Numbered from the stretch's first letter, positions 9,260 to 51,200 are shown. The stretch is 64,000 bases of DNA from a virus (IMGVR_UViG_3300011115_000844:10102-74101); one strand, 5' to 3'. Notes: generated by a model from the letters alone, not told the origin. A program made the numbers and translations.

Positions 9260-9553
9260 TTATTTTTTAAATAAATACATAACGTATTGAATAATAAAAG
9301 ACCAACCAATTCCTATAATGGTTAGTCCTCCTAATATTTTGCTTTTAACCAACTTATCATTATCAACGTATGCCTTAATATCATTTAACTCATTTACTAA
9401 CCCTTTCTGACCATAAACGGGATTTCCAATAACAGTTTGATTTAATTGCGTCAATGTTTTATCCATTTCACGCAACATACCATCCATGTCATTCTGCTTA
9501 TTAATCATCTGCGATAGCATTGACTTAATACTCTCTACGTTATTCTCTTCCAT
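9260..9553 (-). CDS. coiled-coil plus C-terminal TM protein (holin/XhlA-like candidate)
   Basis: Heptad pattern, GQKGLV motif, single TM. Confidence 0.5.
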   Translation of the reverse strand: MEENNVESIKSMLSQMINKQNDMDGMLREMDKTLTQLNQTVIGNPVYGQKGLVNELNDIKAYVDNDKLVKSKILGGLTIIGIGWSFIIQYVMYLFKK

Positions 9554-9786
9554 ACTCTTTCATGTATAAAATATAAAATTGGTTTCAATATTAAATCGGA
9601 AAATCCAAGTGTTGTAGCAATACTCATATTTCCCGTTGTAATATATCCTATTCCAAAAGTAACACAAGTTCCTAATATTCGATACGTTACGGTCTTTAAA
9701 ATAGATGTTGTAATTGAATTATTTAATTTTTTATGCAACGAATTATCAATGGTATTGTCAACAATATTATAAAATTCCTTAGCCAT
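9535..9786 (-). CDS. DUF2061-like small membrane protein
   Basis: SILKTVTYRILG...YFIHERVW signature. Confidence 0.8.
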   Translation of the reverse strand: MAKEFYNIVDNTIDNSLHKKLNNSITTSILKTVTYRILGTCVTFGIGYITTGNMSIATTLGFSDLILKPILYFIHERVWKRIT

Positions 9787-9795
9787 AATTTAAGT

Positions 9796-10197
9796 TTAAA
9801 GTTTTTTTTCTAATCTCATTTCTTCTCTAATCTTAGTAGCACTTATTTCAGAAATTTCTGTTGGAGGTATGTGTTCAACTATATCGTACCCTACACCCCT
9901 GCCAAAATCAACCGAACATATATCGGGGCAAATAAAAACTTTAACCCTATTTTCTTTAATCAATTCAGCGTATTCATCCATTATGTTATTCATAACCTCT
10001 AACGGAGAAAATGGGTTTTTAAAATCGGGTTGTACTTCTCTAATGCCTATACAAACATTACCCCCTTCATCTAAAACATTTTGAAACATTTGTTTGTGTG
10101 CTAAATGTAGGGGTTGCCATCTGCCAATAAACAAACTAAACTGATTTTTATTTTTATCCATTGAACTTCTAACGTGAATCTTTTTACTCCAACTCAT
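9796..10197 (-). CDS. HIGH-superfamily nucleotidyltransferase
   Basis: FIGRWQPLHLAH and ISATKIR motifs. Confidence 0.8.
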   Translation of the reverse strand: MSWSKKIHVRSSMDKNKNQFSLFIGRWQPLHLAHKQMFQNVLDEGGNVCIGIREVQPDFKNPFSPLEVMNNIMDEYAELIKENRVKVFICPDICSVDFGRGVGYDIVEHIPPTEISEISATKIREEMRLEKKL

Positions 10198-10642
10198 AAT
10201 CTTTTTTTTGGTTTATATATTTCTTAATTTCGTGTAAACATTCATCAATACTATTTTCAGATGTATCAATTTTCAAGCAATCTGTCTTCGGCACTTCAAA
10301 ATCAATGGCAAAGTAGTTATTTCTACCCCTATCCACTTGACTATCGTAATGCAAGTATATCTCAATTAGGTTTGAGTTATTCCTCAAATATGACCTTAAC
10401 TCTTCATAAGGAGTTACAAAACTCATTAAAGGTACAAATCCACCACGTTCAAGGTAAATAGCCATATCAAATGCGTTCTTTAAATTACGCATTCTACCTT
10501 CTTTGCTATAATCTTTGTTTTTGGTTATATCACGCCAAACATCGCCATCTATTCTAACACAATTGTGGCTAAAAAATGGCACAAGTTTATCAGCTAATGT
10601 TGTCTTACCACTTGCAGGTTGACCGTACAAAAGTATTATCAT
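10184..10642 (-). CDS. cysC: adenylylsulfate (APS) kinase-like protein
   Basis: GQPASGKTTLA P-loop, IDGDVWR, YSKEGRMRN, SFVTPY, FEVP. Confidence 0.8.
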   Translation of the reverse strand: MIILLYGQPASGKTTLADKLVPFFSHNCVRIDGDVWRDITKNKDYSKEGRMRNLKNAFDMAIYLERGGFVPLMSFVTPYEELRSYLRNNSNLIEIYLHYDSQVDRGRNNYFAIDFEVPKTDCLKIDTSENSIDECLHEIKKYINQKKDYELE

Positions 10643-10887
10643 GTTATAATTGCTTTTTTATTATCCTCAAATGAAATGTTTTTTGCATTGCATGAAATGT
10701 GATATTTCTCTACATCTCTACCATCGTATGTTTTTATGATATCTTTTGAAGTAAAGCATGAGCAATTTATATCTATTTCATCAACAAGAAATTCTAATCC
10801 ATTTACTAATAACCTCCATTTAAAATCGCTTTTTATTGGATAATCAGTATTGAACCTAATTTTTACTTCAAGTAAATTATTTTCCAT
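10639..10887 (-). CDS. hypothetical protein
   Basis: ORF translationally coupled to cysC. Confidence 0.6.
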   Translation of the reverse strand: MENNLLEVKIRFNTDYPIKSDFKWRLLVNGLEFLVDEIDINCSCFTSKDIIKTYDGRDVEKYHISCNAKNISFEDNKKAIIT

Positions 10888-10893
10888 AATTAC

Positions 10894-11724
10894 TTATTTT
10901 CTGTAATTAAACTTGTTGTAATACCACTTGTAGTTTTCGTATAACCAATTAGTAATATCGCTACCCATAACTGCATCAGCATCAGACGGTTTTAATTCTA
11001 ATTTTGGTCTTATGGTATGTAAATCTTTTGTCAAACCATACACGCTATCATCTTCGGTAGTTATTTGTTGTATGTTGTCAAAATCATGCTCAAAATGTGG
11101 CACTTCCAAGTATTCGTATATCCTTATCATTGTGTTTTCGGGATATAAGCAAAGGTCTTCTGCTTTTACAAATAATATCTTATCATCGTAACCAAGACGT
11201 ATCATTTCGAATATCCTTTCAACTGCTCTTCCTATTGTGTTGTTAGGGTTCATCCATTCATCAACTCTTTTATGAACAGTAGTACCCCTTGCTTCACTAT
11301 CATTTCGTATTGGGTCTGCAATTAATTGATTTTTTCTGTAAATCTTTTCATACGAAGCAATTACATCTTTAAGATTACGTACCATGCAAATAATCTTTGG
11401 GTTAGGGTAAAATTCATTCAAAAATGAACGATAAACACCCCAACCCCTACTTTTTATCATTAAGTAAGGTTTGTTTGTCAATGCACTTGCATAACCCATG
11501 ATACCATTATAACAAAATGATTTGAATGCTTTAGCCATTAATTCGCCATCTTGTGCTTTAAATTCGGGAGAATTTGTAAAGTTACCCCTTGCACCAAAAA
11601 CCAATTCTAATAACCCATCTGTCGGTGTAACATGAAAATCGGGATTTTGTCCTAATATATTTTGAAGTGCAGTTGATAGTGAACGTGGTAAACTGCTTTG
11701 AAAAAACAATTTTTGATTAGTCAT
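10894..11724 (-). CDS. PAPS-dependent sulfotransferase family protein
   Basis: SLPRSLSTAL 5'-PSB loop, KSRGW, KIICMVRNLKDVIAS 3'-PB motif, AEDL. Confidence 0.85.
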   Translation of the reverse strand: MTNQKLFFQSSLPRSLSTALQNILGQNPDFHVTPTDGLLELVFGARGNFTNSPEFKAQDGELMAKAFKSFCYNGIMGYASALTNKPYLMIKSRGWGVYRSFLNEFYPNPKIICMVRNLKDVIASYEKIYRKNQLIADPIRNDSEARGTTVHKRVDEWMNPNNTIGRAVERIFEMIRLGYDDKILFVKAEDLCLYPENTMIRIYEYLEVPHFEHDFDNIQQITTEDDSVYGLTKDLHTIRPKLELKPSDADAVMGSDITNWLYENYKWYYNKFNYRK

Positions 11725-12409
11725 TTTTATTTGTTTTTAATAGTTTAAATTTCATTTTTTTACATTTTATATCTTTTATTATTGATTGCCTTACATTTTG
11801 ATATGTTGTTTTATATTTTTCTGCTACATCTGTATAAGAATCAAAAATCTCATTTGTATCAATACATATTACTTTAACTCCAATCGTTTTCTTTTTTGCA
11901 TCGGAAATTTTTTTTTTATGTTCAATACTTTTTGGTTTAATTAAATATTCTCTTAAAATTTCTTTATTTTTTTGTGTCATTTTATGTCCTTTAAGACCAT
12001 TTGATATTTTTTCACAAAAAGACAAAGGCATTTTTTTACCCTTGTTAACATTTGGTTTACCTTTAAATATTTTGCTTAGATGTATTTTCCTATCTTCACT
12101 CAAAGGTTTACCTCTTGTTGGGTTTTCTATAATATCACTATAATTCAACATGATATTACCTAATGATTTTAAATAATCATACCAATATTGTTCTCTTTCT
12201 ATGATTATTCTTATTTCACATTCTTCTAAAATTGAAAATTCTAAACTATCAATACCGTACTTATTGTGTATGTTTTGTAATATAGGAGTATGTCTATTAT
12301 TTCTTAATTTACTTTTATGTGAGTTCCATCTTTGACATATATTGTTACTACTACCAACGTATTTTTTATTATTTTCTTTACAAGTAATAAGATATATACC
12401 ACAAGCCAT
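11717..12409 (-). CDS. GIY-YIG homing endonuclease with NUMOD3-like repeats
   Basis: GIYLI...YVGSS...RW..H...E; SxEHKKKIS-type repeats. Confidence 0.9.
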   Translation of the reverse strand: MACGIYLITCKENNKKYVGSSNNICQRWNSHKSKLRNNRHTPILQNIHNKYGIDSLEFSILEECEIRIIIEREQYWYDYLKSLGNIMLNYSDIIENPTRGKPLSEDRKIHLSKIFKGKPNVNKGKKMPLSFCEKISNGLKGHKMTQKNKEILREYLIKPKSIEHKKKISDAKKKTIGVKVICIDTNEIFDSYTDVAEKYKTTYQNVRQSIIKDIKCKKMKFKLLKTNKND

Positions 12410-12436
12410 TTTAATCGTTTTATTTTATAAAATAAA

Positions 12437-13312
12437 TTATTTTTCTAAAGATGCAATAATATCATCTACGTTAAATATGTCCTCTACTGAATTATAAGGA
12501 AATTCAATTGGGTCACCAATGATATTAAACTTTGATAAATAACTGTTTCTTAATTCGGGTTGCTTTGTAAATGGATTGGCAAGAATGTTATCGTGCATTT
12601 CGTACCCTAATACTTTTGGATTGTTGGTTATCCAACAAACAGTTGAAGGTAAATTTAATGAAGCACAAGTATGTTGTAAGAAACTATCTATTAATAATCT
12701 TTTCTCTGATAGCAAGGTTAATGCTACTATTTCTCTGAAATTTGCGTTAATAGGTGTAGTGCCTTCATAACCCATTTGGTCTTCCTTTCTGATGTGTACA
12801 ATGTTATATTTCTCATGGAAATGATTAATAACCTTTACAACTACATTAGAAGGTAAATCACGAGCAAAACCATATTTTAATTCGGGTGTTGCACCTCCGT
12901 TGGTTTGCATTAAAAATATCGGCTTATCTGATTTGTATTTGTTTTGGAAAAAGTCCAATTCTCTTTGTGTTAAAAACAATTCGGGCATTTCACCATTGTA
13001 ATCAATGTCAAACATTTTGCACCAAATTTCAATTAAATGCTTTTTTTCTTGCACATAGTCCATTTCAAGATATGGATTGTGAAGCATTAATTTTACTTCC
13101 TTATTTTCAATATTATCGGTAAAAAAATAACTAATATTCCCATGCTGAAACGATTTGTTTACATAAGGATTGTTAAGGTAAACTTCGGGATAACCACTAA
13201 TAACAATTAGGTTATCTTTTGGATATTTTGTTTTGATTGCTTTACAAACGGCAGTAGATAAAATACATTTACCTATACCTCCATCAATTTGAAAAATAAT
13301 GTTTTTTGACAT
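12437..13312 (-). CDS. GT9 (heptosyltransferase-like) glycosyltransferase
   Basis: GGIGKCILST...IKTKYP...LNNPYV; IDSFLQH.CA.L. Confidence 0.75.
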   Translation of the reverse strand: MSKNIIFQIDGGIGKCILSTAVCKAIKTKYPKDNLIVISGYPEVYLNNPYVNKSFQHGNISYFFTDNIENKEVKLMLHNPYLEMDYVQEKKHLIEIWCKMFDIDYNGEMPELFLTQRELDFFQNKYKSDKPIFLMQTNGGATPELKYGFARDLPSNVVVKVINHFHEKYNIVHIRKEDQMGYEGTTPINANFREIVALTLLSEKRLLIDSFLQHTCASLNLPSTVCWITNNPKVLGYEMHDNILANPFTKQPELRNSYLSKFNIIGDPIEFPYNSVEDIFNVDDIIASLEK

Positions 13313-13349: not shown

Positions 13350-13357
13350 CAAATATA
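13350..13357 (-). promoter_or_regulatory. Bacteroidota -7 promoter element for the GT9/sulfation operon
   Basis: TATATTTG on -, about 40 bp upstream of the GT9 start. Confidence 0.55.
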
Positions 13358-13377: not shown

Positions 13378-15534
13378 TTACCAAGCAACTTCGACTAATC
13401 TTATATTGGCAACTGCTCTAAAAGTAGAACCCGTACCTGCCGTTGTTGGTGCTTTTAATGTTAATAATAAATCATTAGAAGCACCTACTGAATACGTAAT
13501 ATCCGAACTCCCCATTGAAGCATCATTATGACTTGATACATTTGTTGGTACTGATATATCACCAACACCACCCACTTTTTTAAAGAAAAATGCTTCGGAA
13601 GTTTGATGAACTGCACCAACTGAAAGCGCTCCACTCGTTCCACTACCTAAAATAGTACAAACAATAATCCAATCTACAAACACATTCCATGCTCTATTAT
13701 TTCCTAATGGTATTATAAGATTAGTAGTACCCGTACCATCTAAACTCATGGGTGCAGTCCCCGAAGCATTTAATAATGCCTCACGCCATGCAACCAAATT
13801 AGAAGTTTGACCACTACCTAAAGTTGCAAAGCCACCCGTTGAATAAGCATCTTGACCTCGTAAATATGATAATCCTAAATAACCACCCGTTACCGATGAT
13901 AATACTGCACAAGCAGTATTATTACAACCACCTAAAACTGATGATGCTTCACCACTTGAAGTATTACATCTACCATTTACAACAGTTGAAAAATTTTGCG
14001 TAGCACAATTAAAGCATCCCCCCGATATAGAAGAAAACCCACCCGTAACACAATTGAAACAACCACTTATAATAGATGAAAAGCAACCCGTAGAATTGTT
14101 ACAACAACCCGAACCCATAAATGAATATATATTATTTGAGCAATTTTTATTACCCGAAACAATAGCACTATAATTACTTGAAGTGCAATTAGAATAACCT
14201 GCACCAATAAAAGAACCTGCACCTTGAATTTTGTTATCTTTTCCTCCTACAATTGCACTTAAATTAGAACCACTATTACATATTTGATTGTTTGAGCCAC
14301 TACCAACAAAAGAGTAATTACTCCCAACACAATTATTAATTCCCCCTACAATAACCGAACCTGCACCAATGCAATTTATAGTATTATTACTACCCCCTCC
14401 AATAAAATTCAAATTATAAGTACCACTAATCGTATTGGTACTGCCACCTACAATGGTAGAATAACAATTACCAACACATATTTTATTTAAACACCCATTT
14501 AAAATAGATGTATGATTATCTAAAGCAGAATTAATACAACCATTACCAATAAAAGAATAACAACCACTTGTTGTACTTGCTCTACCATTTAAAATTGTAT
14601 TAAAACAACACCCATTTGTAGAATTGCTAACGCCACCTCCAATAACACTATAATCACTTGTTATTGTATTTATTTGTCCACTACCAATAAAACTATATTG
14701 ATTGCGTATTGTATTATCAGCACCCGTACCTATAAAACCAAAAGAACAACAGATTGCATTTCTGTTCCCACTACCTATTACACTATTAATATGATTGGTA
14801 GTTAATAAATTACAAACACCACTTAAAATTACCCCATATTGAGAAATTCCTGTTGTATCATTAATGCAATTACAACACCCATTTAATATGCTTGAAAGAA
14901 CGGCTTGACTACCCATAATACAATTACATCTACCATTTGATATAATTGAATAATTGGAATTGCCTCCAATATTATTACAAAGACCATTTGATACTGAAGA
15001 ATATCTTGCAGATATAGTATTAGAAAGACCATTACTAACAAAAGAGAAAGCACTCCCAATAGTATTTAAGCATCCATTATCAACAAATGAAAAACAACTA
15101 TTGCAATTTGCAACATTACAGTTTCCATTAATAATAGATGTATAAAAACCACATGAAGAATTACAACACCCATTCCCTATAAAAGAATAACAACATTTTG
15201 ATGTATTATTTTTTCCATTTATAATTGTACTATAACAAGCAGATGAAGTATTATTGCACCCACCTAATGAAGAACTATATAAGGCACTTGCATTATTACC
15301 TGCACCACATCTTACAGATGATGAAACGCCACCACCTAATACGATTACTGCTTCACCGTTGTATGGCTTTGTATTGGTAACGCAAACATTTCCCGAAGTT
15401 GTGTACCCCGAACCATCTATTTGAATACCATTACAAGCCGTTACTGAAACTATTGTTACAGTACCCGTACCACCACCCCCTCCCGAAGATTCGCCTCCAA
15501 AAAAACCCGTATTCATACCACCAAAATCTGCCAT
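13378..15534 (-). CDS. Cys-rich beta-helical spike/fibre protein
   Basis: About 14-16-aa S-x-I-x-x-G-x-x-N repeats, Cys-poor C-terminal head, MADFG...GFFGGE N-terminus. Confidence 0.8.
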   Translation of the reverse strand: MADFGGMNTGFFGGESSGGGGGTGTVTIVSVTACNGIQIDGSGYTTSGNVCVTNTKPYNGEAVIVLGGGVSSSVRCGAGNNASALYSSSLGGCNNTSSACYSTIINGKNNTSKCCYSFIGNGCCNSSCGFYTSIINGNCNVANCNSCFSFVDNGCLNTIGSAFSFVSNGLSNTISARYSSVSNGLCNNIGGNSNYSIISNGRCNCIMGSQAVLSSILNGCCNCINDTTGISQYGVILSGVCNLLTTNHINSVIGSGNRNAICCSFGFIGTGADNTIRNQYSFIGSGQINTITSDYSVIGGGVSNSTNGCCFNTILNGRASTTSGCYSFIGNGCINSALDNHTSILNGCLNKICVGNCYSTIVGGSTNTISGTYNLNFIGGGSNNTINCIGAGSVIVGGINNCVGSNYSFVGSGSNNQICNSGSNLSAIVGGKDNKIQGAGSFIGAGYSNCTSSNYSAIVSGNKNCSNNIYSFMGSGCCNNSTGCFSSIISGCFNCVTGGFSSISGGCFNCATQNFSTVVNGRCNTSSGEASSVLGGCNNTACAVLSSVTGGYLGLSYLRGQDAYSTGGFATLGSGQTSNLVAWREALLNASGTAPMSLDGTGTTNLIIPLGNNRAWNVFVDWIIVCTILGSGTSGALSVGAVHQTSEAFFFKKVGGVGDISVPTNVSSHNDASMGSSDITYSVGASNDLLLTLKAPTTAGTGSTFRAVANIRLVEVAW

Positions 15535-16768: not shown

Positions 16769-19700
16769 TTATTTATTTTTAAGTAAATCAAAACAACTTT
16801 TTAACTCTTGAATTGACTTAACCAAAGTTGGTATTACTTGATTGCTATCGAAACTATAAAACCCACTTTTAGTTTTTCTAACTGTTTCGGGTAAAATCTT
16901 CATTATATCTTGTGCAACAAATCCTATATTTCTTTGACTACCTTGACATTGTGTATCGCACCAATAGTAAGTAATTGGCTTCATCTTCATTACGGCATCT
17001 AATCCATAACTACAACCTAAATCGCACACATCCCTTTTTAATCTTGAATCCGAAGTAACTTGTTGTATTACACCATTTGTATCAGAACACAAAGTTACGC
17101 CACCCGATGTTAAATTATCAGCAACTAAAAAATTTGATTTAAAAGAACACCCAACTGTGTTTACAATACTACATCCAAAAACACCTGCATAATCACCACA
17201 AGCAAAATTACCCGTACCTCCTAAAACAAGAGAAGCACAACAACAAGTACAATTGTTACTACCACTTAAAATTGCACTATTAGGAGTAGAATCTAAAATG
17301 CAGTTACTTTCACCATTTAATATTGTTCCATAAATACTTGAACCAAAAATGCAATTCTGTGTAATATTAGAAGCACCTCCATTTAAAATTTGACCATAAT
17401 TTGAACTGATATAATTATAAGAGCCATTTAAAATAGTTGAATTAGTTGGAGTGTCAATACAATTATTAGAACCCGTACCAATAAAATGAAAAGAGCCATA
17501 ATATCCACTTATCGTATTTATACATCCCGTACCTAAGAAGTTATAACAATTTCTAAACCCATTTGACACATTGGTATGCCCACCACCAATAAAAGCATAG
17601 AAACCTTCATTACTGACACAATTTTGCACACCGTTTGCTATTGTTGAATAATTGCTATTAATACTGACTAAATTTTGACAACCATTTATAATTGTTCCTG
17701 CACAACTACACGTAAAATTTTGACAACCATTTCCAACAAAGTTAAATTCATACCCATAAATTAAATTTTGCCTACCTGCACCAATAAAGTGATGAGAACC
17801 AACATTCATATTGTTGGATAAGCCATTACCCATAAAAGAATATGTTGAATCTGTGCCATTGTTATAACCATTTGAAATTGTTGAATAGTTTGAACTTAGT
17901 ATTTTATTGCAACAACCATTTACAATACTGTTGTTACAACAATTTATACTATTACAAACCCCATTTAAAATAGTGTTATTTGACCCAAGAGCAGGAGTAA
18001 TATTATCACCATTAATATTATTATTATAACCATTTAATATCGAAGAAAAATTATTGTAATTTATAGTGCTTTCGCAAACATTATGAAGAGCAGAAAATGT
18101 TGCGAATTGTCCCGTACAACTTGATATAAGTGTATTATTTTTAGCATTTATAACAGAAGAGTCACAATACCCATAAAAACCCGTATAATTACTATTAATT
18201 ATTGTAGAATCATTAGTATCATTAATTGCAATACTACAAACATTAGAAATAAAATTTTTATTGGATACGGGGTTTGAATTATACGATAATGCTAATCCAC
18301 AAGAATTGTTTATAAAATTGCAACACCCACACACTAATATTGAACTGCTATTTAATATTGTATTAAAAGCAGATTTTGCAAATAAGCAACTAATATCTGA
18401 TTTTATAAAATTATTATTAGCACAATCAAGCAATATGTTCTGCTTACCATCAATAAAATTTGATGAATTGCAACAACACAATTTATTTCCATAAGCAATT
18501 ACTGTGTTATAATTAGCATAACCCCCCGAAATGGAATTGGTTAGACCAAAGATATTATTTATTCCCGTATATGCACCCGAAATAGTATTGCCTAAGCCAA
18601 ATATTTGATTTACAAGTGTACAATAAGATGATATAGTATTATTATAACCATTTATCTGTGTGTATGAATTAAAAGAATCAGTAATTTTATTATTGCAACC
18701 CCAAACATTGTTAAAGCACCCATTAACGCAAATACAATTTTGTTCTCCTATTACTGTGCTACTACAAGTTGAATTTGCAATTAAGTTAGCACAACCACTC
18801 ATTATGTTATTATAAGAACCATTATCAACATTATCAGCACCATTTAAAATTGTATTGTATTGAGTAGTAGTATCATTTATACAATTTTTGCAACCATTTA
18901 AAATAGAACCAAAAGTCAAACTTGAAACTTTATTAGTATCACCATTGCCTATAAAATTATTTACACTACTAACATTATCAATACAATTAGTAGAACCACT
19001 TATTATTGTATTGGTTGAACCAAAAACACAATTGTCCTTACCAACACCAATAAACCCCCTTGTTCCATTAATATAATTATTTTCTCCATTTAATATCGTG
19101 CCACTACAACTACAAATACAATTTTGATACCCATTTAATATAGTGTGATATTCTCCACAAGCAAAACTACTTAAACCATTTAATATAGAATTAAAACCAT
19201 TTCCAAAACCAAAACTTGTAATACAATTACTTTGTCCATTAGATATGCTATTATTACACCCATCACAAATTATGTTTGAATCGCCTCCCGTAATTGAAGA
19301 ACGTAATGTATTTGCACCTAAAATGCAATGATTTCTACCATTAGTAACTATATTATCGCAACCATCAACGCAATTTGTTTGACCATTTATAATGGTATTA
19401 TAACAACATCCACAAATACAATTACAAGTGCCATTTAAAATAATATGATGAACCCCACAATTAACAAGATTACAAACACCATTTAAAATAGTTGATTTAC
19501 CAATAGTCGCAGAAACGCAATTACAAAATCCATTTAAAATAGCACTATTATACCCACTATTCGAATTACAACTTCCATTACCTATGATTGAATAATAACC
19601 ACTATTGGTATTACGAACTCCATCTAAAATTATTGAACGATAATTACTAATAGTGTTACAAAAACCATTTATAATGGTTGACTTATAACCACTTGCAGAA

Positions 19701-20557
19701 CATATTATATTGCATTCGCCATTTAGAATAGTCGAACAACCCGAAGCTGAACCTACAATACAATTGCAATTACCCGTACCAATTAGATTTAAAGTCCCAC
19801 TATTACCTATTAAATTACAAGCACCTCCTATTATTGTAGATTGCGTATCTAAAATGCAGTTACAAAAACCACCTACTATTGAAGAACAATAATCAGAAAT
19901 TGTATTAAATTCCCCACCTACAATTACTGATTTATCCGAATTTGGGCAAATTGTATTACATTGTCCACCACCGATAAAACTTCTATTGGAGCAGTTTTTA
20001 TTTTCTTGCCCACCACCAATAAAACTATACGAAGCCGAAATGGTATTACAATCACCACCTGCAACAACATTATTTCTTGTTGTAGTACAAATTAAATTAA
20101 GAGTACCACCACCAATAGATGAATAACAACCGTTTACACAATTACATTTTCCCGAAAATATACCACTAAAACCTCCATTATCAATGCAATGTAAATCCCC
20201 ACCACCTATAACACTTACGCAAGATTTATTTGAATTACTACACCCACTTAATATTGATGAATAAACACAACAAGAAATATTATTAGAGCCACTCAAAGCA
20301 CTACTACAATCAGCCAAAGCACAATTCGTTACGCCACATCTAATTGTAGAATTAGCACCATCTCCTAAAATCATTATACTTGGCTTCGCAGTAGCACATA
20401 TACAAATTGTACCTGCCGTATTAATTGGTGAACCCCCTAATACCGTAATTCCATCACAACCACAAATAGCAACAGAGGTGACAGTACCCGTACCACCACC
20501 TCCTCCCGAAGATTCCCCTCCAAAGAAACCCATACCTGCTGAACCAAAATCTGCCAT
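16769..20557 (-). CDS. long Cys-rich beta-helical fibre with C-terminal peptidase S74 intramolecular chaperone
   Basis: SxILNGxxN repeats; TSDSRLK...GFVAQD...LVKSIQEL. Confidence 0.88.
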   Translation of the reverse strand: MADFGSAGMGFFGGESSGGGGGTGTVTSVAICGCDGITVLGGSPINTAGTICICATAKPSIMILGDGANSTIRCGVTNCALADCSSALSGSNNISCCVYSSILSGCSNSNKSCVSVIGGGDLHCIDNGGFSGIFSGKCNCVNGCYSSIGGGTLNLICTTTRNNVVAGGDCNTISASYSFIGGGQENKNCSNRSFIGGGQCNTICPNSDKSVIVGGEFNTISDYCSSIVGGFCNCILDTQSTIIGGACNLIGNSGTLNLIGTGNCNCIVGSASGCSTILNGECNIICSASGYKSTIINGFCNTISNYRSIILDGVRNTNSGYYSIIGNGSCNSNSGYNSAILNGFCNCVSATIGKSTILNGVCNLVNCGVHHIILNGTCNCICGCCYNTIINGQTNCVDGCDNIVTNGRNHCILGANTLRSSITGGDSNIICDGCNNSISNGQSNCITSFGFGNGFNSILNGLSSFACGEYHTILNGYQNCICSCSGTILNGENNYINGTRGFIGVGKDNCVFGSTNTIISGSTNCIDNVSSVNNFIGNGDTNKVSSLTFGSILNGCKNCINDTTTQYNTILNGADNVDNGSYNNIMSGCANLIANSTCSSTVIGEQNCICVNGCFNNVWGCNNKITDSFNSYTQINGYNNTISSYCTLVNQIFGLGNTISGAYTGINNIFGLTNSISGGYANYNTVIAYGNKLCCCNSSNFIDGKQNILLDCANNNFIKSDISCLFAKSAFNTILNSSSILVCGCCNFINNSCGLALSYNSNPVSNKNFISNVCSIAINDTNDSTIINSNYTGFYGYCDSSVINAKNNTLISSCTGQFATFSALHNVCESTINYNNFSSILNGYNNNINGDNITPALGSNNTILNGVCNSINCCNNSIVNGCCNKILSSNYSTISNGYNNGTDSTYSFMGNGLSNNMNVGSHHFIGAGRQNLIYGYEFNFVGNGCQNFTCSCAGTIINGCQNLVSINSNYSTIANGVQNCVSNEGFYAFIGGGHTNVSNGFRNCYNFLGTGCINTISGYYGSFHFIGTGSNNCIDTPTNSTILNGSYNYISSNYGQILNGGASNITQNCIFGSSIYGTILNGESNCILDSTPNSAILSGSNNCTCCCASLVLGGTGNFACGDYAGVFGCSIVNTVGCSFKSNFLVADNLTSGGVTLCSDTNGVIQQVTSDSRLKRDVCDLGCSYGLDAVMKMKPITYYWCDTQCQGSQRNIGFVAQDIMKILPETVRKTKSGFYSFDSNQVIPTLVKSIQELKSCFDLLKNK

Positions 20558-41884: not shown

Positions 41885-44356
41885 TTATGGTTCTATTTTT
41901 TCAGCAACAAAGAAATCTGAATATTTTTTAAATATTGAAGAAACACTATTGGCAACACTATCATTCAAGGTTGATACCATATTGCCGTTTATAATTTCTT
42001 TAATTGTTTCATCAACCTTTGATTTTATAAACGCAGGTGTAAATTTACTTTTGGTAATAATTATATCAACCGTTGTTTTATCAAATGCTACTAAAAAGCT
42101 ATCAAACGCTTTTTGTAAAGTTTTACCTTTATTTATTCCAACATCTTTACCTTCACTTTTAGCTATTGCTCTTACTAATTCAATTTCAAATGCAACTCTA
42201 AAAGAAACCAATGTACGATAAGACACTACTGCAAGGTCATCAAGTGACAAATCTTTCAAAATTGTTCTAAGTCCTTTTGCTTCGGGTGGTGTTTGATTAT
42301 TTTTTATTGCTTCGGTATATTCATAATAGTTACCTACCAACATTTCGTAAAGAAATTTAAACCTTGAAGTCAATTCATCAATTGGTTTGCTATACTCTAC
42401 TTTATAAACGCTACCCGAAAATCTATCTAATAAAGATAAATCTTGCTGATTATTTGCCTTATATTTTTTTGGTGGTGCAGTATTTGGATAAATGTTACCC
42501 GTACCAATCAAAGCAAAATTTTCATTTCTTGGTATTGGTGCTTCTTCGGGATTTGTGCTACTAATCATAGCATTCTTTGATTCCCTTGTTTTAGAAGATT
42601 TAGCAAGTGCATCATTAAATAAACCTGCCGTATTAGGGTCAAGACGAGGCATTTCATCAAGAATTAAAATTTTACCATCCCTCCACGCATTGATTAATTT
42701 ACCTTCTTTATAACCTTCAATCGTTTGCCCACCTAAAATTTCAGTTGGCGAAGTATATTGTGAACAGTTAATAATTAAATATTCTCTTTTTAATTTTTTT
42801 GCAACTTCTTCTGCCGTATATGTATTGTGTGTTACAATATAATCATCTGTAATGTAAAGATGTGTTGGGTTAGTTACCGATATACATCTTGTTTCTAATT
42901 CTCCAACATATTCAACCTTGTCAATAAATCTTTTAATACCGTATTTTGTTGGTTTTTTATATCTATCCTTTTTATAAGTAAGTTTAAATGGTTGTATTTC
43001 ATCAGGGAAAACACAAAAAATTCTATATGCAGTATGTCCTTCTTTTTTTACTCCATTATAGTTATAGTATGGTGTTTTTTCTGTTTTTTTAGCCGTTCCA
43101 CCTAAACTTCTAACTAATTCACAATAATCATTTGCTAAACATTCGCTTGAAGTACAAAATTCAAAATGAGTATTATCGCTATAAGCATCTGTATCATTTA
43201 AACCTTGTAATAAAGCAATTCTATTTTCAATGCTATCGTATAAATACTCTTCGGGAATAAATTTATGAATAGATTTTTTGCCATGCAATTTAAGTCGAAT
43301 CAATTCCTCTTTTAATGGATTTGGTAAAGACATATTCGTTCTTACTAAGCCATAAGTTAAGCATCTATTTTCGCTTTCTCTTTCAACTAACTCAATACCT
43401 TCGGGTAATACAAGCGAATCAAATAATTCTTTACTTGGATTGCAAATTGATAATGATGTTTGACTTATACTTCCATCTCCTAAAATAACACCCAAAGTGT
43501 ATGGATTTATTTTATGTGAAATGCTATCAAATTCAATTGCTTTGTTTATATCAATATAAGCATTTGCATTATTATCGCCTATTTTGATTTTATTCATAAA
43601 TTCTTTTAATGGTAACACTCTACCATCATTACCTTTACCTCTGTCGTTCCTTGTATAAATTTTCCATAAATGTTCATCACAAGTATCAACAAAGCCACCA
43701 TCGTTCATAAAAACTCTATAAACAGATTTTTCGCCTCTATCAAAAACTCCATTTATTTCGTAAAGTTTACCATCTTCACCAAAAACTTTATCGCCTTCTT
43801 TTACATCGGCAAATGTAATCCAACCTTTATCAGATAAAACTTTTGTGTATAATGGACTTGCTTTACCACCACCTGCTTCTCCAATTAAATAAACATTATT
43901 ACCTGCCAATACATCGTCAATAACTTCAAAGAAATATGGAATTTCCGAATCTCTTTTACTTACTTCTATTTTAAACCCACCAAAATTAGGAAGTTCAAGA
44001 ATAACCTTTTGGTTTGCTTTAATAAACTCCATTACATCATTATCTAATTCCGTAAGGTTAACCTTATCAGTAACTAAGTAATCTTCAATAATTTTTCTAA
44101 CTTGAACGCTATCTACACCACTACCTTGCCCACCCATCATTGTTGCTCTTAAAGTTGCTAATGCAGTTTGAGAATAACTTGTAGGTGTTGCAGGTTGATT
44201 AGGTGTAGGCATTGGTGTTGGGTCAACTTGTGCTAATTCTATTTCTAACTTATCAATAGTTTCTTGGACTAATTTTTTTGCATTGACATCTGTAATGGTG
44301 TTCAATGCTTCCCTTAGTGTTACCAATTCATCTAATATTTCTTCTTTTCTTGTCAT
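41885..44356 (-). CDS. MoxR/CobS-like AAA+ ATPase interrupted by an intein
   Basis: GEAGGGK|T Walker A, LILDEMPR Walker B, IGTGN, DLSLLDRF. Confidence 0.85.
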   Translation of the reverse strand: MTRKEEILDELVTLREALNTITDVNAKKLVQETIDKLEIELAQVDPTPMPTPNQPATPTSYSQTALATLRATMMGGQGSGVDSVQVRKIIEDYLVTDKVNLTELDNDVMEFIKANQKVILELPNFGGFKIEVSKRDSEIPYFFEVIDDVLAGNNVYLIGEAGGGKASPLYTKVLSDKGWITFADVKEGDKVFGEDGKLYEINGVFDRGEKSVYRVFMNDGGFVDTCDEHLWKIYTRNDRGKGNDGRVLPLKEFMNKIKIGDNNANAYIDINKAIEFDSISHKINPYTLGVILGDGSISQTSLSICNPSKELFDSLVLPEGIELVERESENRCLTYGLVRTNMSLPNPLKEELIRLKLHGKKSIHKFIPEEYLYDSIENRIALLQGLNDTDAYSDNTHFEFCTSSECLANDYCELVRSLGGTAKKTEKTPYYNYNGVKKEGHTAYRIFCVFPDEIQPFKLTYKKDRYKKPTKYGIKRFIDKVEYVGELETRCISVTNPTHLYITDDYIVTHNTYTAEEVAKKLKREYLIINCSQYTSPTEILGGQTIEGYKEGKLINAWRDGKILILDEMPRLDPNTAGLFNDALAKSSKTRESKNAMISSTNPEEAPIPRNENFALIGTGNIYPNTAPPKKYKANNQQDLSLLDRFSGSVYKVEYSKPIDELTSRFKFLYEMLVGNYYEYTEAIKNNQTPPEAKGLRTILKDLSLDDLAVVSYRTLVSFRVAFEIELVRAIAKSEGKDVGINKGKTLQKAFDSFLVAFDKTTVDIIITKSKFTPAFIKSKVDETIKEIINGNMVSTLNDSVANSVSSIFKKYSDFFVAEKIEP
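42824..43861 (-). mobile_element. class 3 intein (346 aa) with LAGLIDADG endonuclease
   Basis: Starts with Ala (ASPLYTKV), block B DEHLW, block F TRCISV, block G VTHN|T; LGVILGDG and LLQGLNDTD motifs. Confidence 0.9.
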
Positions 44357-49931: not shown

Positions 49932-51200
49932 TTATAAAGTTTTTTTAAATAAATCTACCCAAGTCTTTGATATTATTTTCCAATCAAGACCTTGCATATA
50001 TTTATAAGCGTTATCAATTCTCTTATTATAGTTTTCTAAAAAATTAATATCTTCATAATCACCCTGCATTCCTTTTGCTATGTAAAGTATCATATCAGCA
50101 ACATCAATATAATCACATTGTTGTCTTATCGTATTATCAAAAGTAGTTGATATAGGAATTAGTTTATCAATTGTGTATGCTCTTTTACCGTTATCAGTCA
50201 TTTCAATAAATGAAGTTGAGTTAGGACAAATAACGGGTGTTTTAGTAGCCATTGCTTCTGTTAGTGTCAAACCCCAACCTTCGCCAAGTGTTGTGGTTAA
50301 ATATACGTCAGAGGCATTGTAAATCTTATTTAGCATTTCTATACTTGCTCCATTGTTAGCTAAATCAATATCCAATAACTTATAATCTTTCCCTTCAATT
50401 AAATCTGTTTGTGCAAGAATACATCTAATATCCCAACCCATCGGGTCTTTTGGGTGCATATGTAGGTATAAAAATGGTTCTTTCTCAATTTGATTTTCTT
50501 CCCATTGTTTTTTTGCTTCAATAAATGAAAATATAGTTGTAGGTATATCCTTTCGGGGTTGATTCCTATTTATGTTTGTAATAATAAACTTATCAGCATT
50601 TCTTCCAAAATATTCCTTTCTAAATTCTACAATTTCTTTTTGAGGTAATGGGAAAAATTGCTTTGGGTTATTACCATGAGGTATAACTTTAATTTTCTTT
50701 TTTAATTCGGGTTTGTGTTTCAAAACTTCTTTTCTACCATATTCGGTATATGCAACTATACAATCAAAAAAATCTAACCCATCTGTAAGTTTTTCAACAA
50801 GTGGTGCGTCAACGGGAAAATAAAATATGGACTTAAATTGTTTTTTGTTAGTAGCAATCTTTTCATCAATAATTGTTTTTAAAATTGATGTTATTGGCAA
50901 AATAACCCCTAAATCTTGAATGATAAAAATACCATCGTATTCGTCTGTATCTTTCAAAATTTTAAGAAAACCAAACCTACCAAAATCATCTTTCTTTGTT
51001 GCTGATTTTACTGCCGATATAACGTAAGTGCCATCTTCTTCTGTATATGGTTCTCCGAAATAATTAATAGCACAAATATCCAATTGAATATTATTTCCAA
51101 AATTATTCTTTAATTCTTTCTTTATATTGTGTGAAACTGTGGCAAACCCCGTATGGCAATTATAATCGCCTAAAAATAATACTTTGTAACTCTTTTCCAT
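49932..51200 (-). CDS. GT4 family glycosyltransferase
   Basis: TGFATVS, NRNQPRKD, YNASDVYLTTTLGEGWGLTLTEAMA. Confidence 0.9.
   Translation of the reverse strand: MEKSYKVLFLGDYNCHTGFATVSHNIKKELKNNFGNNIQLDICAINYFGEPYTEEDGTYVISAVKSATKKDDFGRFGFLKILKDTDEYDGIFIIQDLGVILPITSILKTIIDEKIATNKKQFKSIFYFPVDAPLVEKLTDGLDFFDCIVAYTEYGRKEVLKHKPELKKKIKVIPHGNNPKQFFPLPQKEIVEFRKEYFGRNADKFIITNINRNQPRKDIPTTIFSFIEAKKQWEENQIEKEPFLYLHMHPKDPMGWDIRCILAQTDLIEGKDYKLLDIDLANNGASIEMLNKIYNASDVYLTTTLGEGWGLTLTEAMATKTPVICPNSTSFIEMTDNGKRAYTIDKLIPISTTFDNTIRQQCDYIDVADMILYIAKGMQGDYEDINFLENYNKRIDNAYKYMQGLDWKIISKTWVDLFKKTL

Follow-up and report, generated by a model that had tools for sequence, protein, structure and literature searches.

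This locus raises the question of how an uncultured phage that carries genes for an APS (adenylyl-sulfate) kinase and a PAPS-type sulfotransferase would obtain its APS, and whether a 133-aa nucleotidyltransferase (NT) encoded beside the kinase may supply it. The sequence analysed, IMGVR_UViG_3300011115_000844:10102-74101, is 64,000 nt long, and this whole stretch is referred to as the window. An ORF check of the window placed seven cassette genes, all on the minus strand, at the coordinates given by the first-pass annotation (Table 1). Neighbouring ORFs are separated by gaps or overlaps of no more than 27 nt, and the cassette adjoins the tail-fibre genes of the phage. The gene identities previously proposed (GT9-like transferase, GIY-YIG gene, sulfotransferase, small ORF, APS kinase, HIGH nucleotidyltransferase and DUF2061-like protein) were borne out. 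The description of these genes as one operon with its own -7 box held only in part: the gene set and the box are present, but the window holds 124 copies of the motif TANNTTTG where 127 would be expected, and since this is the chance level, the box TATATTTG gives no evidence of a promoter. No promoter or terminator signals were found above shuffled controls. Searches of the phage record for Sat, PAPS_reduct/CysD, GmhA-type SIS and PfkB kinase genes returned none of them.

Table 1 Features of the cassette and its flank in the window
Feature	Position	Strand	Evidence
DUF2061 two-helix membrane protein, 83 aa	9535..9786	-	PF09834 1.9e-19
NT, HxGH nucleotidyltransferase, 133 aa, candidate minimal ATP sulfurylase	9796..10197	-	CTP_transf_like PF01467 3e-6
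Short APS (adenylyl-sulfate) kinase, 152 aa	10184..10642	-	APS_kinase PF01583 5e-12
Conserved small ORF, 82 aa	10639..10887	-	recurs in related loci
PAPS-type sulfotransferase, 276 aa	10894..11724	-	Sulfotransfer_3 (PF13469) 2.7e-14, Sulfotransfer_1 (PF00685) 2.7e-12
Free-standing GIY-YIG homing endonuclease	11717..12409	-	PF01541 2.5e-13, TIGR01453 4.8e-28, phrog_314 6e-23
GT9-fold glycosyltransferase-like protein, 291 aa (GT291)	12437..13312	-	fold match, AlphaFold model
-7 box TATATTTG, match to Bacteroidota -7 consensus	13357..13350	-	in 65-nt gap before GT gene
Fibre-like neighbour, 718 aa, G/S/N/C-rich, 15-residue repeats (YSxIxGGxxN...)	13378..15534	-	period 15
Tail-fibre protein, 1262 aa, 15-residue repeats like the 718-aa protein	16769..20557	-	PHROG tail-fibre, C-terminus, 1e-11

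Judged by its profile matches and motifs, the 152-aa protein is an APS kinase. It scored 46.5 bits against PF01583 (cut-off 21.1), and when the profile of its family was run against the PDB, 25 APS-kinase sequences (7e-20 to 1e-9) came before any other family, the next of which lay above 1e-4. Across 22 sequences, the motifs GQPxxGKT (P-loop), IDGD..R, GR..N and (S/T)P..R varied little or not at all. The lid region (KGLYKKAR...FTG) was shortened to RGRExFHV, so that, unlike the kinases of PAPS synthases and Sat-CysC pairs, the phage enzyme is without most of its lid, and it fell below the equivalog cut-off (TIGR00455, 47.4 versus 138.7).

The sulfotransferase scored 54.4 and 47.1 bits against the two Pfam models in Table 1 (cut-offs 27 and 22), and the invariant residues of its family, P13-R14..S17-T18 and R116..S124, are those of the 5'-PSB and 3'-PB PAPS-binding motifs. 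Its best solved relatives were protein-tyrosine sulfotransferases (1.5e-10), and the alignment with TPST spans both motifs. Homologs with 28-30% identity (phrog_27463) occur in the cyanophages S-SKS1, S-SRM01 and S-SCSM1, where they are annotated only as sulfotransferase. GT291 matched no Pfam family at E 0.1, and its family profile had no match among PDB sequences. Its AlphaFold (AF2) model reached a pLDDT of 90.1, and the top Foldseek matches were 3tov (1.4e-12, TMq 0.62-0.69), WaaF 1psw (1.5e-10), WaaC (1.7e-8) and TibC 4rap (2.7e-7); as modelled, the protein is of the GT-B fold, closest to the GT9 heptosyltransferases. TibC (4rap/4rb4) is encoded beside the adhesin TibA, as GT291 is beside a repeat-rich beta-structure surface protein, but GT291 is about 100 residues shorter and lacks the Pfam GT9 match, and glycosylation of the fibre by it is only putative. 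The two repeat-bearing proteins lie upstream of the cassette. The 718-aa one had no family match, and about 29 related loci have a relative of it flanking the cassette; relatives of the 1262-aa one lie near the cassette in about 30.

The identity of NT was approached through its sequence, fold and ancestry. The phage protein carries the motifs GRWQPLHLAH and ISATKIRE, and in 24 aligned members of its family (relatives of 110-135 aa) GRWQPLHxGH, FGRGVGY, ISATKIRE and several basic residues were invariant. By both sequence and fold its nearest relatives were NadM-type NMN adenylyltransferases (top profile match 1.8e-7; fold Z 8.3 (VIA)). The fold scores lay close together (NMNAT 8.3, PPAT 8.2, Sat 6.7, with HldC at 5.3) and thus do not discriminate function. 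NT and the NadM enzymes (MJ0541 1f9a; 1ej2; 2qjo) have in common the nucleotide-binding motifs GR(F/W)QPxHxGH and SxTxIR, an NPF(S/T) helix start and a Rossmann-like core. However, NT is about 35 residues shorter, scored below the cut-offs of the curated NadM models (NF002243, 29.9 versus 127 bits; TIGR01527, 26.5 versus 181), and had profile matches only over residues 17-94. From HxGH to SxT there are 88 residues in NT versus about 111 in 1f9a, and therefore some 23 residues of the archaeal NMNAT are absent, both values being estimates from alignment offsets. The missing segment, between the third strand and the GY motif, is presumably the NMN-binding one, and CSVxFGRGVGY stands in its place. 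NT also differs from NadM in an extra conserved N-terminal strand (W3..HV) and in its constant coupling to an APS kinase.

In a profile comparison, similarity to Sat, whose superfamily the first-pass annotation had invoked, was confined to the ISxTKxR motif. Sat comprises a catalytic domain (about 200 aa) and a PUA-like domain (about 170 aa), whereas NT is far smaller, and the Sat catalytic model PF01747 matched neither NT nor anything else in the phage record. With hhalign, the NT family and four haloarchaeal Sat proteins aligned over 12 columns only, ISATKIRE with PSGTKLRE. The sulfate-binding QxRN motif of Sat was not found in NT, in which GRWQP, not QxRNP, precedes HxGH. The active-site motifs of Sat are QxRNPxHxxH and GRDHAG. 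Between HxGH and ISxT there is GRG in the phage NT or GRD in the haloarchaeal fusion, an arrangement that follows the motif order of Sat, although the equivalence of these motifs is only putative. On these alignments, NT is a derivative of the NadM branch and not a shrunken Sat.

The distribution of NT in cellular genomes bears on its function. NT was found fused to a canonical APS kinase in both orders, CysC-NT and NT-CysC (APS_kinase down to 9.5e-69). In one locus (L096) it lies directly behind a canonical CysC (5e-56), and in another (L116) the CysC gene (1.9e-71) has NT directly behind it, with a CysQ-like Inositol_P gene and then a flippase coming next. All 26 NT-bearing genomes had an APS kinase, none had Sat and one had CysD, many NT-positive genomes being incomplete MAGs. 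Nine of the 151 Halobacteria genomes carried CysC, four with sat-cysC and no NT and five with a CysC-NT fusion and no Sat. Halalkalicoccus salilacus is one of the organisms that carry NT but neither Sat nor CysDN. Among 201 Flavobacteriales genomes, 93 carried CysC; CysD was present in all 85 that lacked NT, while CysD or Sat was present in none of the eight that had it. The nominal exact probabilities, 0.008 for Halobacteria and 1e-11 for Flavobacteriales, are inflated because the genomes share ancestry, and the NT-positive genomes of each clade may stem from few acquisitions. The earlier proposal that NT is a minimal ATP sulfurylase completing a phage PAPS pathway is supported: it withstood each computational test applied, namely the constant kinase adjacency, the fusions in two orders and the exclusivity with Sat or CysD among CysC-carrying genomes in two distant clades.

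NT relatives were present on 541 IMG/VR contigs, and neighbourhoods were counted in 64 distinct viral loci. The kinase adjoined NT in 56/56 loci and DUF2061 lay within 1 kb downstream in 61/64; a sulfotransferase was present in 34/40, and GT291 in 33 of the 40 loci with enough flank. Co-occurrence across phages, which the first-pass annotation had proposed to check, thus holds, with gene order shuffled and identities of 35-65%. About 15% of the full-flank loci had a kinase-NT-DUF2061 trio with no recognisable sulfotransferase within 7 kb; these carry a carbamoyltransferase/UDP-glucose dehydrogenase or other glycosyltransferases, and some lie by pyruvyl-transferases. Xylella/Stenotrophomonas phages have a kinase-NT fusion whose neighbour is only a sub-threshold sulfotransferase-like protein. 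Both observations count against a sulfation role.

The GIY-YIG gene scored 98.7 bits (cut-off 56) against TIGR01453, a group I intron endonuclease model. It was absent from nearly all related cassettes, and a 44%-identical copy occupies the same GT/sulfotransferase junction in two loci (L011/L012). With its GIY-YIG catalytic domain, DNA-binding tail and patchy presence at one junction, it fits a free-standing mobile gene. It is an insertion between these genes, presumably a selfish one with no role in the chemistry. The 82-aa ORF had no family match, but 14 related loci contain relatives with 30-41% identity, and in a few cases the two reading frames are joined, giving a single ORF of 141-148 aa with DUF2061. 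The DUF2061 protein scored 70.3 bits against Pfam (cut-off 23.1) and was not found beside NT in the cellular loci examined. Its constant presence in viral loci is unexplained by sulfation.

Since NadM-type NMNATs are the best matches in NCBIfam, in the PDB and by fold, and GRWQPxHxGH is NadM-like, NT might be taken for an NMN adenylyltransferase of NAD salvage. This can hardly be correct, because of the deletion of about 23 residues and because haloarchaea carrying NT keep a separate NadM-like gene; the scores are far under the family cut-offs, the match is partial, and NAD salvage does not account for NT being constantly coupled to an APS kinase. The other alternative of the first-pass annotation, also disfavoured here, was a sugar-phosphate adenylyltransferase: an HldC-like NT would act on a sugar-1-phosphate and supply the GT9-fold transferase with ADP-heptose or a different ADP-sugar, and the kinase would act on host APS. 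NT and HldC are both PF01467 proteins, and GT291, frequent in NT loci, is folded like the GT9 enzymes that use ADP-heptose. We regard this as quite improbable because NT-kinase pairs or fusions occur where there is no GT9 gene (trio-only viral loci, Marinimicrobia, Flavobacteriales, MGIII and haloarchaeal fusions). Moreover, HldC was a weaker fold match than Sat, GmhA-type and PfkB heptose-pathway genes are absent from the phage record, and the exclusivity with Sat and CysD would be left unexplained.

Two further readings keep NT within adenylate chemistry or beside it. NT and the kinase may make another 3'-phospho-adenylylated donor from a non-sulfate anion, or NT may interconvert APS with another adenylate in the manner of an ADP-sulfurylase or APS-phosphorylase. 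The unusual lid of the phage kinase, the missing QxRN motif and the trio loci that lie beside carbamoyl- or pyruvyl-transferases without a sulfotransferase would fit such chemistry. It is nonetheless unlikely, given that the cellular partners of NT are fully canonical CysC proteins, that NT substitutes there for Sat or CysDN, and that the adjoining transferase is a standard PAPS-type sulfotransferase. Fungal ATP sulfurylases have an APS-kinase-like domain that is not catalytic, which shows that dead partners do occur in this pathway, and the unusually small NT could by that precedent be a non-catalytic or regulatory partner of the kinase, with APS coming from the host. This is improbable, because HxGH and ISxTKxR, the catalytic motifs, are invariant across the family, as are several basic residues, and because NT-bearing cellular genomes lack any known APS source.

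As an ATP sulfurylase, NT would have counterparts in two known systems. In PAPS synthases and Sat-CysC proteins (human PAPSS1/2 1x6v; Aquifex aeolicus 2gks; haloarchaeal sat-cysC), the APS kinase likewise has an HxxH-superfamily adenylyltransferase as its coupled or fused partner, with both orders known. The position beside cysC is shared as well, and there, as in the NT cassette, a PAPS-using sulfotransferase follows. CysDN, which serves most Bacteroidota and Proteobacteria as a GTP-driven ATP sulfurylase, carries out the reaction proposed for NT and lies in the same place beside cysC, and in the 93 CysC-bearing Flavobacteriales its distribution and that of NT are mutually exclusive. Its fold (a PAPS-reductase-like ATP pyrophosphatase plus a GTPase) is, however, unrelated, and NT has no GTPase partner.

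These facts suggest that NT probably makes APS, from which the kinase would make PAPS for the sulfotransferase. NT would adenylylate sulfate (ATP + sulfate -> APS + PPi), and the short kinase, translationally coupled to it, would phosphorylate the 3'-OH of APS, a step that would pull the unfavourable first one. The sulfotransferase would then use PAPS to sulfate an acceptor. This is probably either a sugar that the GT9-fold transferase has attached or a residue, located on the neighbouring repeat-rich fibre proteins or on a host surface glycan. The substrate of NT, the acceptor and the roles of the DUF2061 and 82-aa proteins are parts of this scheme that we infer.

By comparative genomics, NT looks like an undescribed and very small ATP sulfurylase that also takes the place of both known kinds in certain bacteria and archaea. 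No publication describing this reading was found in the literature searched. More broadly, and only tentatively, since the combined proposal is doubtful as a whole, the NT family may be a further class of ATP sulfurylase, the third and a minimal one at 110-135 aa, which arose from NadM, is widespread in uncultured phages and replaces Sat or CysDN in streamlined marine Flavobacteriales, Marinimicrobia, marine group II/III archaea, some CPR bacteria and some haloarchaea, while the phage may use the PAPS so made for sulfation of its repeat-rich tail fibres, either through a sugar that the TibC-like transferase adds or on tyrosine itself. If fibre sulfation is true, it would provide the first case of a phage virion protein that is sulfated.

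The seven-gene glycosylation and sulfation cassette that had been placed behind the fibre genes was found as described, as close-set open reading frames with gaps or overlaps of no more than 27 nt (see the table). The window has a G+C content of about 30% and carries nearly all its genes on the minus strand, and DNA comparison with deposited phages gave no nucleotide match. Its source record of 74.1 kb, of which it covers bases 10102-74101, has inverted terminal repeats and an estimated completeness of 57%. The cassette had also been credited with its own -7 box. The box is present, but the motif occurs 124 times in the window against 127 expected and therefore carries no weight, and promoter and terminator scans gave chance-level signal only. 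The 1262-aa protein encoded upstream has tail-fibre PHROG matches. This protein and a 718-aa one are G/S/N/C-rich arrays of 15-residue repeats (YSxIxGGxxNxxxxx), in which Cys (6-8%), Asn, Gly and Ser are unusually frequent, and a 45-bp DNA tandem repeat lies inside the gene of the larger. Relatives of both repeat proteins stand next to the cassette in about 30 loci, and its association with fibre-like genes is therefore a recurring one. Elsewhere in the window, an 823-aa protein joins a terminase-large-subunit/primase-like P-loop region to a C-terminal part matching phrog_249 (annotated 'porphyrin biosynthesis') and an ATPase family, and a second glycosyltransferase lies distant from the cassette.

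Coordinates of the features in the window, and recurrence of cassette genes around NT relatives in viral loci
Feature	Coordinates	Strand	Match	Viral loci
Seven-gene cassette	13312..9535	minus
-7 box TATATTTG	13357..13350	minus	motif match
GT291, 291-aa GT9-fold transferase	12437..13312	minus		33/40, within flank of NT
Sulfotransferase				34/40, within flank of NT
Kinase, 152-aa short APS kinase	10184..10642	minus		56/56, adjoining NT
NT, 133-aa HxGH nucleotidyltransferase	9796..10197	minus
DUF2061 protein, final cassette gene			DUF2061, 1.9e-19	61/64, <=1 kb downstream of NT
718-aa repeat protein	13378-15534	minus
1262-aa repeat protein	16769-20557	minus	tail-fibre PHROGs
45-bp tandem repeat	19550-19693
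823-aa protein	41885-44356	minus	phrog_19299, 1.6e-35
422-aa glycosyltransferase	49932-51200	minus	phrog_2170, 1.8e-38

Relatives of NT formed 4050 clusters at E <1e-3 (90% library), the weaker of which probably include NadM-like sequences, and 678 clusters at E <=1e-10 (50% library); they occur on 541 IMG/VR contigs. For the neighbour counts 84 related loci were taken, of which 64 were distinct, and the denominators are the loci with enough flank. The gene neighbourhood, which the first-pass annotation suggested comparing across phages, does recur. Most related loci are only 35-65% identical in protein to the window, and their sulfotransferase and glycosyltransferase genes come in variable order, which argues that selection holds the gene set together. 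The core is the trio of kinase, NT and DUF2061, and loci with no detectable sulfotransferase still have glycan-modifying enzymes as neighbours. In four such trio loci (L021, L030, L046 and L050; sulfotransferase undetected within 7 kb), these neighbours were a NodU/CmcH-type carbamoyltransferase and UDP-glucose dehydrogenase, or an 830-aa GT2, GT4 and pyruvyltransferase fusion, adjoining an S74-chaperone tail fibre.

The 82-aa ORF of the cassette matched no family and is present in 14 related loci. Some related phages (L029, L044 and L078) have it joined with DUF2061 in a single ORF of 141-148 aa that closely follows NT, so its product is probably a soluble N-terminal domain of the DUF2061 membrane protein. 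Both are constant partners in phages and do not stand beside NT in cells, where DUF2061 genes lie apart from the NT locus beside unrelated genes (EF-G-like, rhomboid, HPPK and one TauE) that give no lead on function. A search for longer DUF2061 fusions found none, which is weak evidence, and a literature search on DUF2061 returned nothing relevant. The GIY-YIG homing endonuclease gene between the GT291 and sulfotransferase genes (PF01541, 2.5e-13; TIGR01453, 4.8e-28) was rejected as a pathway member. Nearly all related cassettes lack it, L011 and L012 have a copy (44% identical) at the corresponding junction, and it is a homing insertion, as had been supposed.

NT is a CTP_transf_like/HxGH nucleotidyltransferase with the motifs GRWQPLHLAH and ISATKIRE. 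NMN adenylyltransferases (NMNATs) of the NadM type came first by NCBIfam (3.6e-7), PDB profile search (1.8e-7), Foldseek (E 1.4e-3) and VIA (Z 8.3), the last closely followed by PPAT (Z 8.2) and ATP sulfurylase (Z 6.7), with HldC lower (Z 5.3). Since NMNAT, PPAT and Sat score alike, the substrate is not settled by fold, and Foldseek and VIA on the predicted model confirm the HxGH nucleotidyltransferase fold only. The NMNAT-type matches all scored far below the family cut-offs and covered residues 17-94 alone. Judged by alignment offsets, NT has about 23 residues fewer between HxGH and SxT than the archaeal NMNAT 1f9a. The missing stretch probably holds the nicotinamide pocket, and in NT the invariant CSVxFGRGVGY stands in its place. 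The model (pLDDT 85.8) has an extra conserved N-terminal strand. Origin as a shortened Sat was rejected: NT is NadM-derived, and hhalign of its family with four haloarchaeal Sat proteins gave no significant homology except at ISATKIRE/PSGTKLRE. The low scores, their limited coverage, the deletion and the single motif in common with Sat argue that NT belongs neither to the Sat family nor to the ordinary NMNATs. Proteins of the family are publicly annotated as cytidyltransferase-like, NMNAT, FAD synthase or plain APS kinase, and a literature search on non-canonical ATP sulfurylases and on phage sulfotransferases with APS kinase found nothing relevant.

The kinase matched the APS_kinase model at 5e-12, and its family profile (22 sequences) against the PDB gave APS kinases only as top matches (7e-20 to 1e-9), the next family scoring above 1e-4. 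The family keeps the P-loop, IDGD..R, GR..N and (S/T)P, and its lid is shortened to RGRExFHV. The kinase and NT genes overlap by 14 nt in the window. NT also occurs in cellular genomes (Marinimicrobia, Marinoscillum, Flavobacteriales MAGs, marine group II/III archaea, CPR bacteria and cultured haloarchaea), where its gene immediately follows that of an APS kinase, often a fully canonical one (5e-56 in L096; 1.9e-71 in L116, where a CysQ-like Inositol_P gene and a flippase follow). Representatives at 50% identity include fusions of NT with APS kinase in either order, as CysC-NT (P0136, P0174) and as NT-CysC (P0156, P0182, P0197, P0214, P0181). Their APS_kinase scores reach 9.5e-69, and phrog_10255 is a kinase-NT fusion of Xylella and Stenotrophomonas phages. 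Halalkalicoccus salilacus (L135, 7485-8342) encodes a single 286-aa CysC-NT protein (WP_332097884.1, named by NCBI only "adenylyl-sulfate kinase") with a sulfotransferase-like gene before it; its NT half has IGRDVGY, nearer to GRDHAG of Sat than the phage FGRGVGY is.

Some other settings of NT were observed. In Xylella phage Sano (L001, NC_042344.1; 4552-6321) gp35, annotated 'kinase', is the fused kinase-NT. Its gene comes after those of the NADAR-domain protein gp34 and of the 195-aa gp33, which has a sub-threshold Sulfotransfer_4 match (E 4e-4); gp28, 3 kb upstream, is annotated as cysteine dioxygenase and has no Pfam match. In the metagenomic P0224 (432 aa) an NT domain is joined to sequence that matches DHHA1 (NrnA-like) faintly (E 7e-5). 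Because NrnA-type DHH/DHHA1 enzymes include PAP phosphatases, this fusion may be another tie to PAPS metabolism. In a marine group III archaeon (L104), a short kinase and NT lie between SAH hydrolase/SAM synthetase genes and a serine hydroxymethyltransferase gene, which places them among methyl- and sulfur-cycle genes and not among glycan genes.

Sulfate activation is known to be carried out by two types of ATP sulfurylase, Sat and CysDN. All 26 NT-bearing genomes had APS kinase, none had Sat, and a true CysD was found in one, a Flavobacteriaceae MAG (G003) with NT in a full phage-type cassette. Many of the genomes compared are MAGs. CysC was present in 9 of 151 sampled Halobacteria; in four of them sat lies directly upstream of cysC and NT is absent, and the other five have the CysC-NT fusion without Sat. 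Among 201 sampled Flavobacteriales, compared by matching genome lists by eye, 93 had CysC; CysD was found in 85/85 of those without NT, usually adjacent, and CysD or Sat in 0/8 of those with it. The nominal exact probabilities (0.008 for Halobacteria and 1e-11 for Flavobacteriales) are inflated, as related genomes have a common history and do not count as independent, but the complementarity of NT with Sat/CysD recurs in two domains of life. The proposal that NT is a minimal ATP sulfurylase in a PAPS pathway agrees with both this exclusivity and the coupling and fusion to CysC, and NT is a candidate for the missing enzyme.

Other activities fit these patterns less well. A plain NMNAT, the type nearest in every comparison, conflicts with the deletion and the sub-threshold scores, and also with the coexistence of NadM and NT, since a separate NadM-like gene is present in all five Halobacteria with the fusion. 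An HldC-like enzyme feeding the GT9 enzyme would suit the cassette, but NT-CysC pairs and fusions occur without any GT9 gene, and such a role does not explain the exclusivity with Sat/CysD. A search of the phage record for Sat, PAPS_reduct/CysD, SIS-type GmhA and PfkB kinase found none. NT may instead yield a different adenylylated donor, or may be regulatory.

As an ATP sulfurylase, NT would adenylylate sulfate to APS, and the coupled kinase would turn APS into PAPS and so pull the unfavourable equilibrium of the first step. Such a pull by APS kinase is established for PAPS synthases; here the coupling takes the form of gene overlap, and elsewhere of fusion. The PAPS would then be used by the sulfotransferase, which scores above both Pfam cut-offs, belongs to a family in which the PAPS-binding motifs PR..ST and R..S are conserved, and has protein-tyrosine sulfotransferases as its closest solved relatives (1.5e-10). 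GT291 matched no Pfam family and its family profile matched no PDB sequence, its relatives being found by fold search alone. The nearest folds to its AlphaFold model (pLDDT 90.1) were the GT9 enzymes 3tov (E 1.4e-12), WaaF (1.5e-10), WaaC and TibC, so the label "GT9-like" holds at the fold level only. Among enzymes with the GT9 fold are a protein heptosyltransferase, TibC, and two LPS enzymes, WaaC and WaaF. Given this fold, the nearness of the sulfotransferase to protein-tyrosine enzymes and the adjoining repeat-rich fibres, sulfation of the phage's own fibres is an attractive possibility, and a host surface glycan is an equally open target.

The cassette would thus combine PAPS synthesis with a sulfotransferase, which is of a known kind, and the reaction of its first step, long known, would be catalysed by an enzyme of a new family. 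If this is true, NT is a third type of ATP sulfurylase, of about 130 residues, and a very small part for engineered PAPS regeneration. APS kinases now seemingly without an APS source would be explained, and for many marine bacteria, archaea and phages the prediction from genomes that they are unable to form APS or PAPS would need correcting. We know of no phage in which a role of sulfated glycans or proteins in recognition of the host or in remodelling of its surface has been demonstrated; such a role is suggested here by the conservation of a sulfation module that is self-supplied and adjoins fibre genes.
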